From positions 583,459-647,458 of the forward strand of contig CAWGAN010000003.1 in assembly GCA_963820635.1 (NCBI GenBank): a stretch of 64,000 nucleotides of DNA. The letters run 5' to 3'. The stretch is from an uncultured Gaiellaceae bacterium. GTDB lineage: Bacteria; Actinomycetota; Thermoleophilia; Gaiellales; Gaiellaceae. The notes beneath the pieces are model-generated. The model worked only from the letters and a program-made list of their open reading frames with translations. It was not told the DNA's origin and ran no database searches. This document shows positions 41,401 through 43,043 of the stretch, in pieces. The position numbers and the translations under genes were made by a program. Numbering within the stretch: the first letter of the stretch is position 1; each line of letters begins with the position of its first letter.

Positions 41401-41433
41401 GTACGGCGACTCGGGTATCGGGCTCTCGTTCAC
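38422..41433 (-). CDS. STAND-type P-loop NTPase / single TM helix / WD40-repeat protein (1003 aa, intact)
   Basis: GTG 41431-41433 overlaps the TGA of the upstream gene (GTGA). Walker A is [13 protein letters not shown] (41260-41283) and Walker B is [12 protein letters not shown]. The hydrophobic helix [23 protein letters not shown] lies at 40150-40215. About 530 aa of WD40 units follow ([127 protein letters not shown]). Confidence 0.85.
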   Translation of the reverse strand: [1003 protein letters not shown]

Positions 41434-43043
41434 GCGGCCTCGAGCCGTCGCTCGAGCAGCTCGACGTACGACAACGGATCCACGTCGAGCGCGGCGACGT
41501 CGAACCGGCGCCAGAACGCCTGCGCGAGCGGGCTCGGCGAGCGCTGCACCGCCCACGAGCGGTACGCGACGGGTCGCTCGCCCCAGATGCGGTTGAGGAT
41601 GAGTCGCAGGTTCCAGTCGGCCATCTCGTAGCCGAGGAAGAGGAAGTGGCTGCGGCGAAGCCTGGCCGCGAGCGCGACCGGCACGACGGCAGTCAGCTCG
41701 GAGCGGCCGAGGTAGTCGATGTAGTCGTCCTCGGTGATGACGAAGCTCTCCCACTCGCGCTCGGGCAGCGGATCGACGGCGCCGTGGAGCTTCAGCAGGA
41801 TCGTGCGCCGGTCGAGGTCGAGCTCCGTCGCGTACGTGTTCGGAACGTCGATCGGGCGCGGCGGCTCTCCCGGCGGTCGGTGCCAGAAGCGCCCGCGGTG
41901 AGTCCCGGTTGCGACGTAGGCCACGATGTCGAGCTCCTCGCCGGCCTCTTCGAAGGCGCGCTCGAGGGCGAGGTCGTAGTTCGTGGTCACGATGAGCTGG
42001 TGGGGCGCACCGTGCTCTCGTAGGAGCGTCGGAAGCCGGGCGAGGAACCGCTGGAGCGGTCCCGGTTCCACCGCCGCCTCGAACCGGGTGTGAAGTTCGT
42101 CGTAGAGCGGGCCTGATCCCTGCATCGTCGCGACGTACTGGGAGACGCGCGCGAGGTCGACCGGGCGATCGTCCGGAACTGCAAATGCCCGGGCGAGATG
42201 CTCCGCGAGATCGCCCGCCCCGTCGAGACCGATGACGGGCACCACCCGGCCCGAGAGAAGAGCCTTGACGATCTCCCCCTCCTCGTCGGCGGGCGCCGGC
42301 CCGCCGGAGACAGTGAGCCCCGACTCGTGGCGAAGGATCTCCGCCTGGAGCCGCTTGAGCTCCGGGCCTGGCTCGATCCCGAGCTCGTCGAGGAAGCGGG
42401 CGCGAGCGTCGTGGTACACCTCGAGAGCTTCTGCTTGCCGACCCGCGCGATACAGCGCGAGCATGAGCTGCCTGCGAAACGTCTCACGAAGCGGGTGGTC
42501 GCCGGCGAGTCCCTCGAGCTCGCCGATCACGTCGCCGTGCCGCCCGAGCTCGAGCTCGGCGTCGATCCGCTCGCCGATCACGACGAGTCGCAGCTCCTCG
42601 AGCCGTCGGATCTCCGCCTGTGCGAAGTCGTCGAACGCGAACTCCACGAGCGCGGATCCACGCCACAGCGCGAGCGCGGACTGCAGCAGCGCGCTCCGCT
42701 CCTCTGCAGGAAGCCGCCGCGCGTCGGCGAGCGCCTGCTCGAACCGACGCGCATCGATCTGGTCAGCTCCGGCGTTGAGCACGTAGCCGGGTGCGCGGGT
42801 GTCGAGGATGTCGGTTCCCAGCGCCCGGCGCAGGCGTCCGACGGCGTTCTGGAGCGACGCAGTGGCCGTCTTCGGCGCCTCCTCGCCCCAGAGCGAGTCG
42901 ATGAGCCGATCGGTCGGGACGACCCTGCCGGCCTCGAGAACGAGGATGGCGAGGAGCGCGCGCTGCTTGGGGCCTCCGAGCGCGACATGCCCGGTCTCGT
43001 CTGAGACCTCGAGCGGGCCGAGTATCCGGAACTCGAGCGTCAC
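41430..43043 (-). CDS. SARP-type DNA-binding regulator (OmpR-like wHTH + BTAD) fused to a SIR2_2 (SIR2-like NADase/deacetylase) domain (537 aa, intact)
   Basis: [53 protein letters not shown]... (wHTH). [13 protein letters not shown]...[44 protein letters not shown] (BTAD). SIR2_2 motifs are [16 protein letters not shown] (TTNYD at 41973-41987), [22 protein letters not shown] and [18 protein letters not shown]. An alternative GTG lies at 43097. Confidence 0.85.
   Translation of the reverse strand: [537 protein letters not shown]

Follow-up and report, generated by a model that had tools for sequence, protein, structure and literature searches.

What does a SIR2-like domain do at the end of a transcription factor, and with which protein does it work? 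The question is raised by a locus of an uncultured Gaiellaceae bacterium (Actinomycetota; Thermoleophilia; Gaiellales), found in a stretch of 64,000 nucleotides of GenBank assembly GCA_963820635.1 (contig CAWGAN010000003.1, positions 583,459 to 647,458 of the forward strand; hereafter, we refer to this whole stretch as "the window" and count positions from its first letter). Two overlapping minus-strand genes are in question. The first encodes a protein that we call SARP–SIR2, in which the two domains of a SARP regulator, a winged helix-turn-helix (wHTH) and a BTAD domain, are joined to a SIR2_2 domain; the second encodes an nSTAND1 NTPase with a membrane helix and a WD40 propeller.

A sequence-only reading of the window had noticed the fusion and suggested that its product is either a transcription factor that senses or consumes nicotinamide adenine dinucleotide (NAD+) or an effector kept on DNA until its release. 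Our analysis confirms the fusion, finds for it a constant partner, and points to another role for the SIR2 domain. We give an even chance to the proposal that an NLR-like sensor controls the SARP transcription factor through SIR2, which would serve as a coupling or effector domain.

The SARP and SIR2 halves of the fusion protein

The SARP–SIR2 gene (coordinates of all features are collected in Table 1) can be read from a GTG codon with AAGG 8 nt upstream; an alternative GTG at 43097 would lengthen the product to 555 amino acids (aa). Pfam recognizes Trans_reg_C (E = 9.5e-11), BTAD (E = 9.6e-43) and SIR2_2 (E = 4.4e-22) in it, and all three matches pass the curated cut-offs. Their order bears out the earlier claim that SIR2 occupies the position held by the NB-ARC and TPR modules in AfsR. 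An AlphaFold2 model computed from a 59-sequence alignment is confident across both modules (mean predicted local distance difference test score, pLDDT, of 90.3), and the sole segment with pLDDT below 50 is the linker between BTAD and SIR2. The predicted template modelling score is 0.57, so the mutual orientation of the SARP and SIR2 modules is undefined; the model depicts the protein as two rigid modules joined by a flexible tether. By sequence and by fold, SARP–SIR2 is a member of both the SARP family and the SIR2_2 family, a fusion on which Pfam, AlphaFold2 and Foldseek agree.

In Foldseek searches, the N-terminal half matches the SARP domain of AfsR (8k60_I; E = 2.2e-19, TM-score 0.88, root-mean-square deviation 2.5 Å, 40% identity) and, further, EmbR (2fez). 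The NCBIfam AfsR model matches positions 28–285 (E = 8.6e-59) and scores short of the cut-off set for full-length proteins, as a partial match should. When the base-contacting residues of AfsR are aligned to SARP–SIR2, the arginine at R92 is kept and T88 becomes asparagine, a combination that would be compatible with DNA binding at a different specificity. The recognition helix carries SLQN (TxxSLQN) in all SARP–SIR2 clades, instead of the xVQxYVSxLR that is usual among SARPs.

The C-terminal half has a SIR2 fold over residues ~254–537 (AlphaFold2, Foldseek), in good agreement with the span of about 258–537 proposed from sequence; the Pfam SIR2_2 match itself covers only residues 350–512 of the 537-aa form. 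Foldseek aligns this half with KomC, ThsA, DSR2, Avs5 and SIR2-HerA (E = 3e-10 to 1e-6) and with SPARSA, its ranks 7–50 are defence-system SIR2 proteins throughout, and phmmer matches among PDB sequences are consistent with a defence-type SIR2. These matches bear on the idea that the protein is a sirtuin-type deacylase or ADP-ribosyltransferase, brought to DNA by its SARP domain and modifying RNA polymerase or nucleoid proteins there. We consider it very unlikely: membership of the SIR2 superfamily and a DNA-binding fusion partner would suit such an enzyme, but the 537 residues contain no cysteine at all and hence neither a Zn-binding Cys4 nor a sirtuin Zn-ribbon, SIR2_2 (PF13289) is the only SIR2 family matched, with no match to the classical sirtuin family, and the structural matches at ranks 7–50 all come from defence systems. 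A classical sirtuin was rejected on the same grounds (no Cys4, SIR2_2 the only match).

How widespread is the fusion? More than 120 protein clusters at 84–93% identity share all three domains, and the few that are named come from Gaiellaceae metagenome-assembled genomes (MAGs). Searches seeded with two distant SARP–SIR2 proteins each returned at least 119 further clusters of the same architecture, at identities to the window protein down to ~41% and with Gaiellaceae as the sole organism names. Databases name these proteins as SARP or BTAD regulators only, and literature searches (BTAD + SIR2, SARP + SIR2 + STAND, SIR2-like + STAND NTPase + WD40) found no paper on a SARP–SIR2 protein. Many Gaiellales proteins labelled "SARP family transcriptional activator" carry a SIR2 domain that has gone unnoticed.

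For comparisons at the genome level, we used 81 loci, consisting of the window and the best 80 of 572 loci with relatives of the SIR2 part, one genome per species; these 80 belong to Gaiellaceae, Gaiella, Thermoleophilia or unclassified actinobacterial MAGs and show 58–99% identity. The sequence-only reading had allowed that the open reading frame (ORF) might be an assembly artefact that joins two genes. An artefact of this kind, through assembly or frameshift, was not borne out, and we regard it as hardly credible. Some family proteins are clearly frameshift products: P0254 and P0189 read through from SIR2 into nSTAND1, and a number of MFD MAGs have split ORFs that look like frameshift errors, presumably introduced by long-read assembly. 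But the SARP–SIR2 ORF is uninterrupted in 62 of the 81 independently assembled loci and found in hundreds of protein clusters, and the model is confident on both sides of the junction. Because the three-domain frame recurs both in the >120 clusters and in all 81 independently assembled loci, an artefact is ruled out and the fusion is genuine. Apparent chains that run from SIR2 into nSTAND1 (P0254, P0189, P0121, P0448 and several MFD-MAG loci such as L050 and L056) are probably frameshift read-throughs of the two overlapping genes in error-prone assemblies.

A constant nSTAND1 partner and a changing catalytic site

In all 81 loci, an nSTAND1 gene lies directly downstream of SARP–SIR2 on the same strand. 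The earlier proposal that the next gene supplies an ATPase in trans thus holds. In the window, the stop codon of SARP–SIR2 and the start codon of its partner share the letters GTGA, an overlap that indicates translational coupling and that is seen likewise in L001, L082, L083 and L085. The partner has a Walker A motif (GPSGVGKS) at residue 51 and a Walker B motif (LVLDQAEE) at residue 123. Its membrane anchor and predicted external, hypervariable WD40 region had escaped the earlier reading. An equivalent transmembrane helix is present in 34 of 34 full-length partner orthologues and also in the partner of P0132, and the RRHRQ ahead of the helix in the window implies an N-in topology; given the constancy of the helix, the WD40 region is predicted to be extracytoplasmic. 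Tandem Repeats Finder detected no WD40 repeat units of high similarity in the DNA, so the variability of this sensor, described below, differs in kind from that of fungal NLRs, whose repeats are highly conserved internally. No NCBIfam model matches the nSTAND1 protein.

The pairing extends beyond SARP fusions. An exhaustive search with the SIR2 part returned 661 clusters (50% identity) at E < 1e-30, mostly stand-alone proteins of ~320 aa. In the longer members SIR2 is always C-terminal, and the N-terminal domains of the 55 that were scanned include TIR_2 (9), CHAT (8), nSTAND1 (6), SARP (5), protein kinase (4), XRE-type HTH (4), EAD7 (3), cyclase (3) and caspase (1). We examined seven diverse contexts, namely the window, L001, a stand-alone SIR2, a cyclase–SARP–SIR2, two other SARP–SIR2 clades, an X–SIR2 and a TIR–SIR2. 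In each of them, an nSTAND1 protein with WD40 or TPR repeats is encoded by the next gene, or by the next but one past a 105-aa ORF, and the overlap with it among diverse SIR2 contexts is often 4 nt. The partner of the cyclase–SARP–SIR2 has a membrane helix and that of the stand-alone SIR2 has none. Genuine single-chain fusions exist as well; their order is nSTAND1–X–SIR2, and most of them lack the catalytic His. Because nSTAND1 is adjacent or fused to SIR2 across contexts with varied N-terminal domains, we read SIR2 plus nSTAND1 as the conserved unit and SARP as one of several interchangeable N-terminal modules. Triple fusions of this cyclase–SARP–SIR2 type (P0132, P0455) hint that cyclic-nucleotide signalling may be linked to the SARP–SIR2 module.

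Whether the SIR2 domain is catalytic has to be asked separately, as a SIR2_2 match alone does not make a NADase and the Asn/His dyad needs checking. In the window protein both residues of the dyad are present, and IG-LDGAG, which is still glycine-rich, stands in for the LGAGxN motif of the SIR2 family and a ~20-residue loop. Asn355, His420 and the GLDGAG loop are retained in 120 of 120 close homologues (the window clade), within which the dyad is evidently under selection. In most other SARP–SIR2 proteins one or both residues are lost: Asn becomes Arg in syntenic Gaiella orthologues; in other syntenic orthologues His becomes Arg or Gln, and Asn becomes Ser, Gly or His; and in the P0157 clade, Asn becomes Ser, Gly or Cys while His is retained. 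Only 13 of 120 relatives of P0170 have both residues, Asn and/or His being lost in the other 107. Among representatives at 50% identity, the dyad is intact in 2 of 12 that are fused to SARP (Asn and/or His gone in 10) and in 94 of 119 that are not (loss in 25). The correlation between loss of the glycine loop and loss of the dyad is not clear-cut, as the P0157 clade has a GPGxGG loop without the Asn.

Since the domain, its nSTAND1 partner and synteny persist after loss of Asn and/or His, catalysis is not the conserved function of SIR2 in SARP–SIR2 proteins. Coupling to the STAND sensor is the more likely conserved role, rather than NAD sensing, because the SIR2 subfamily adjoins or fuses to nSTAND1 in every context examined, irrespective of the N-terminal domain. 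One alternative has the protein sense NAD+ or an ADP-ribose derivative, with SIR2 tuning the SARP to the redox or NAD state and nSTAND1 a mere neighbour. Such a sensor would fit the pseudo-enzyme-like pattern (fold kept, catalytic residues often gone), which suits ligand binding, and a linker architecture typical of one-component regulators, but it is at odds with the shortened or variable NAD pyrophosphate loop of the SARP-fused forms, with the invariant 4-nt-overlap pairing and direct nSTAND1–SIR2 fusions, which argue for a functional partner, and with the occurrence of the same SIR2 subfamily behind non-DNA-binding N-termini; we find it improbable. Of the NAD-linked transcription factor first proposed, the NAD-consuming form may hold for this protein, because Asn355 and His420 are present and kept in all close homologues, and the NAD-sensing form is less likely than STAND coupling.

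The two proteins change at very different rates along their length. Over 34 orthologous pairs, mean identity to the window is 0.69 for the wHTH, 0.72 for BTAD, 0.49 for the linker, 0.82 for SIR2 (the highest of the pair), 0.67 for nSTAND1, 0.43 for the transmembrane region and 0.41 for WD40. In species whose UvrB is 92–98% identical, SIR2 is 94–95% and the WD40 region 35–40% identical; by these figures SIR2 is conserved at about the level of UvrB and the WD40 sensor is hypervariable between species. Identity breaks near the end of the NTPase domain, and the transmembrane–WD40 part behaves as if it were an exchangeable sensor cassette. This part (38425–40215, minus strand) is 94% identical in one related species, 55–74% in a few and 30–40% in most, and the NTPase domain beside it keeps 55–80% identity. 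Even the closest relatives show little conservation of the segment from nSTAND1 to uvrB.

The order of genes in the window is polA, rpsA, coaE, SLT, MFS, small genes, SARP–cyclase–AAA_16–TPR, deacetylase, SARP–SIR2, nSTAND1–WD40, DMFA2_C-like and uvrB. uvrB lies within 8 kb in 57 of the 81 loci by phmmer (56 by BLASTP), and a contig of the P0157 clade has the same polA, rpsA, coaE … uvrB order. The second SARP gene of the window (SARP–cyclase) is 1.5 kb away, and at least 47 of the 81 loci have it upstream in the same orientation. No defence island or mobile element was recognized near the locus in the window flanks, and a tblastn search of 72,556 plasmids and 50,697 phage records with the SIR2 domain gave no match. 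We conclude that the locus belongs to the core genome and is inherited vertically, and that its sensor is immune-like and evolves fast.

This neighbourhood bears on a conventional abortive-infection or defence system, in which nSTAND1–WD40 would sense an invader, the SIR2 NADase would deplete NAD+ and the SARP would merely autoregulate its operon. We hold this main rival to be possible but on the unlikely side. Core synteny (polA–rpsA–coaE … uvrB) across clades without a defence island, and the lack of any relative among the plasmid and phage records, argue against it, as do the many SARP–SIR2 relatives, most of them, that keep the whole system without the catalytic residues, and a sensor predicted to lie outside the cell, where sensing phage proteins would be unusual. 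It draws strength from the closest structures, which are all immune NADases, from a dyad intact and strictly kept in the window clade, from relatives that carry TIR, CHAT or caspase domains and, as stand-alone SIR2 proteins, adjoin transposases, and from a sensor as hypervariable as immune receptors. HTH–SIR2 variants also exist, and HTH regulators autoregulate other defence systems.

Table 1. Features of the locus, with positions in the window
Feature	Position	Strand	Remarks
SARP–SIR2 coding sequence	41430..43043	-	537 aa from GTG 43043; TGA stop at 41430-41432
OmpR-type winged helix (Trans_reg_C), residues 24-89	42777..42974	-	Pfam
BTAD helical domain, residues 96-237	42333..42758	-	Pfam
Flexible linker, residues 243-251	42291..42317	-	AlphaFold2
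SIR2 (SIR2_2) Rossmann-type domain, residues 254-537	41433..42284	-	Pfam and Foldseek
Altered glycine-rich loop, G272-LDGAG-277	42213..42230	-	alignment
Asn355 codon, motif TTNYD	41979..41981	-	equivalent of ThsA N112
His420 codon, motif KLHG	41784..41786	-	equivalent of ThsA H152 and KomC H146
GTGA overlap, SARP–SIR2 stop and nSTAND1 GTG start	41430..41433	-	4 nt
nSTAND1–transmembrane–WD40 coding sequence	38422..41433	-	1003 aa
nSTAND1 NTPase domain	40246..41406	-	Pfam PF20703, E 1.4e-47
Single transmembrane helix	40147..40215	-	RRHRQ before it; hydropathy 2.8
WD40 beta-propeller region	38425..39801	-	Pfam WD40, E 9.6e-56
SARP-type box of the operon, TTGAGCG-N4-TTGAGCG	43105..43122	-	TGATCT (43091-43096) 8 nt on
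Second box	36333..36350	+	then 8 nt, GATCGT; upstream of DMFA2_C-like secreted protein gene (ATG 36376)
Third box	43984..44001	+	then 8 nt, AACGCT; upstream of 60-aa ORF 44022-44204
Fourth box, 2 mismatches	48408..48425	+	then 8 nt, CACGCT; upstream of ORF 48474-48857
Fifth box, exact	48854..48871	+	then 8 nt, CACGGT; upstream of ORF 48942-49421
Four repeats CCAACCG, GCAACGG, CCAACAG, CTAACCA (CYAACSG)	43127..43165	-	exact 11-nt period, in phase with the operon box
Divergent secreted polysaccharide deacetylase	43190..43987	+	Pfam Polysacc_deac_1, E 5.5e-22; signal-peptide-like N-terminus
Second SARP protein (SARP, class III cyclase, AAA_16, TPR)	44588..48340	-	Pfam
ORF with DMFA2_C-like start	36376..39969	+	open for 1197 codons, antisense through the WD40 gene
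Housekeeping genes of the flanks: M32 carboxypeptidase, MFS transporter, SLT transglycosylase, coaE, rpsA, polA	30941..32911; 49474..50688; 51316..57386	+; -; -	

Candidate SARP sites and a proposed signalling route

If the SARP half is a working regulator, where might it bind? In SARP promoters the direct repeats are spaced by 11 or 22 bp, and 8 bp separate the 3' repeat from the -10 element (PMC10936776). A candidate site of this form stands upstream of the operon: its box (TTGAGCGGGTCTTGAGCG) consists of two heptamers 11 nt apart, with the 3' end 61 nt upstream of the GTG at 43043. At up to one mismatch, the TTGAGCG box has 4 matches against 0.04 expected. The four boxes beyond the operon's own are intergenic, stand ahead of plus-strand genes and are followed 8 nt on by an NANNNT hexamer. 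Across the compared loci, the operon box is found upstream of the orthologous gene in ~35, and ~60 more boxes occur in the flanks. All five boxes of the window are intergenic and cluster round the two SARP genes, and they suggest a local SARP regulon, to which the DMFA2_C-like secreted protein, the 60-aa ORF and the ORFs at 48474-48857 and 48942-49421 would belong. A box upstream of the operon itself is what one would see if the SARP merely autoregulated a defence operon; similar boxes ahead of four other genes speak against it.

Further upstream lies the array of CYAACSG repeats, for which 2 matches were counted where 0.05 were expected. Of 80 loci, 29 have the strict four-repeat AAY pattern upstream, against a chance expectation of 0.0013 per 260 nt; the array is present in L084:30-75 and L085:8905-8950, is seen in the P0132 and P0157 clades, and is conserved in three SARP–SIR2 clades altogether. 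When both SARPs are compared across clades, the SLQN helix and the AAY array are kept and the TTGAGCG box is clade-specific, and this co-occurrence, together with the recognition helices, offers an assignment of SARPs to repeats that is only suggestive. The repeat-bearing intergenic region is common to the SARP–SIR2 operon and the divergent deacetylase gene. The latter looks leaderless, with GACCGT 7 nt before its ATG at 43190. A generic repeat finder reported only short chance-like repeats in the intergenic region and missed the degenerate phased array, and a terminator scan gave matches at chance level only.

From these elements we infer physical coupling of the two proteins, oligomerization, DNA binding by the SARP of SARP–SIR2 and NADase activity as steps of one route. 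The two overlapping genes would form a chromosomally fixed NLR-like signalling module, with the nSTAND1 NTPase, its one membrane helix and its external WD40 region as sensor and switch, and SARP–SIR2 as output. The external WD40 region would bind a variable ligand, upon which the cytoplasmic nSTAND1 NTPase would oligomerize. SIR2, presumably descended from an immune NADase effector, would couple to the STAND protein. Immune SIR2 proteins are activated by assembly, as in the structures of helical ThsA, KomBC and Avs5. By analogy with ThsA, KomC and Avs5, the oligomerized NTPase might engage the SIR2 domain of its co-translated partner and assemble a SIR2 oligomer, and the SARP domains would thereby be clustered on their tethers, which should promote cooperative binding at the repeats phased by 11 bp. 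The targets so activated would be the operon itself and the divergent gene for a secreted enzyme, perhaps along with the four other promoters that have TTGAGCG boxes, and together they would make up a small local regulon. In the window clade activation probably also hydrolyses NAD+, given the intact Asn355/His420 dyad; in most sister clades the NADase activity would have been lost and the transcriptional arm alone left.

A more specific version of sensor control over the SARP is conceivable, and we advance it tentatively. In it, the external hypervariable WD40 receptor would template the assembly of SIR2, a former immune NADase that now acts mainly as a scaffold, so aligning SARPs on the 11-bp repeats; the outcome would be an inducible transcriptional response, of an immune, kin-recognition or envelope kind, and not cell suicide. 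The window clade would then be an intermediate in which NAD+ hydrolysis is still coupled to transcription.

Several points weigh against control of the SARP by an NLR-like sensor. Contact between SIR2 and nSTAND1 is suggested by gene order and fusions only. The hypervariable sensor and the closest structures, all of them immune NADases, fit a pure defence system equally well. The shortened glycine-rich NAD loop makes NADase activity uncertain even in the window protein. On the DNA side, the SARP–cyclase protein could bind some or all of the repeats, a scan of 38000–44600 for the sigma-70 consensus found no promoter, and the -10 hexamers at the boxes are our own assignments.

If sensor control of the SARP is correct, we see at this locus a STAND sensor with a SIR2 NADase, a module of immune type, in the course of conversion to a transcriptional signalling pathway, and both stages of the conversion survive in sister lineages: the window protein has the dyad that most of its relatives have lost. 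Bacteria would then also offer an example of an NLR-type receptor whose external sensor evolves fast. The candidate operator sites, like the pair itself, are of a size that suits direct biochemistry.

Comparison with known systems

Among SARP regulators, the closest comparison is with AfsR and other large SARPs of Streptomyces, which resemble the present system in the wHTH and BTAD domains (with the identity and TM-score given above) and in the use of a STAND NTPase with a repeat sensor. In AfsR, however, NB-ARC/NOD and TPR are part of one chain, whereas here a separate membrane-anchored NTPase of the nSTAND1 clade carries WD40 repeats; an AfsR-type large SARP was rejected because the ORF ends after SIR2 and the NTPase belongs to another polypeptide, of nSTAND1 type with WD40. 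EmbR of Mycobacterium tuberculosis, a SARP with an FHA domain, is similar in that the domain after the SARP receives a signal from another protein. The candidate target promoters here obey the SARP rule. If the proposed route is correct, SARP–SIR2 would represent a third mode of SARP control, the other two being that of AfsR, in cis by NOD/TPR, and that of EmbR, by FHA/kinase.

With the SIR2 proteins of defence systems, namely ThsA (Thoeris), KomC (Kongming), DSR2, SIR2-HerA and SPARSA, the C-terminal half shares the SIR2_2 fold and the TTNYD and KLHG motifs. Unlike these NADases, SARP–SIR2 has a DNA-binding N-terminus and no SLOG, HerA, Ago or DSR2-type domains; its glycine loop is shortened, its locus belongs to the core genome, and the dyad is lost in most of its SARP-fused relatives. 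ThsA was rejected as an identity, as the protein ends at SIR2 (no SLOG or Macro domain) and no TIR gene is found among the neighbours. PADLOC gave only weak matches to the SIR2 core (ThsA, PDC-S25), and for the nSTAND1 protein it gave no meaningful match; the ThsA match covers residues 429–504 of the 555-aa form (E = 4.8e-14). We take these weak matches to mean that the pair is no catalogued defence system.

Avs5 (SIR2-STAND) is similar in combining SIR2, a STAND NTPase and a fast-diversifying C-terminal repeat sensor. It was rejected because the window has two genes with a 4-nt overlap and because the single-chain relatives have the reverse order (nSTAND1–X–SIR2). The defining features of an AfsR-type large SARP, a sirtuin, ThsA and Avs5 were each looked for and are absent, so the pair is none of these.

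The nSTAND1 conflict systems have been described by Kaur et al. 2021 (PMC8195603), and the two-gene unit belongs with them. Like them, it combines an NTPase that has Walker motifs with a rapidly diversifying C-terminal repeat sensor; its SIR2 gene is adjacent throughout the 81 loci, and related loci carry TIR, CHAT, caspase and EAD domains. Unlike theirs, its distribution is neither patchy nor mobile nor tied to defence islands, the polA–rpsA–coaE … uvrB neighbourhood being shared by two clades. The pair further differs from Avs5 and the nSTAND1 conflict systems in its predicted extracellular sensor, in its transcription-factor module and in its vertical inheritance, at a place beside uvrB, across Gaiellales.

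In the way its parts would work together, the pair comes close to the STAND transcription factors MalT and GutR. These use a STAND NTPase switch to control a DNA-binding activator, within one cytoplasmic chain that has no SIR2 domain. The logic proposed here is the same, with the DNA-binding domain and the NTPase in separate chains and SIR2 involved.

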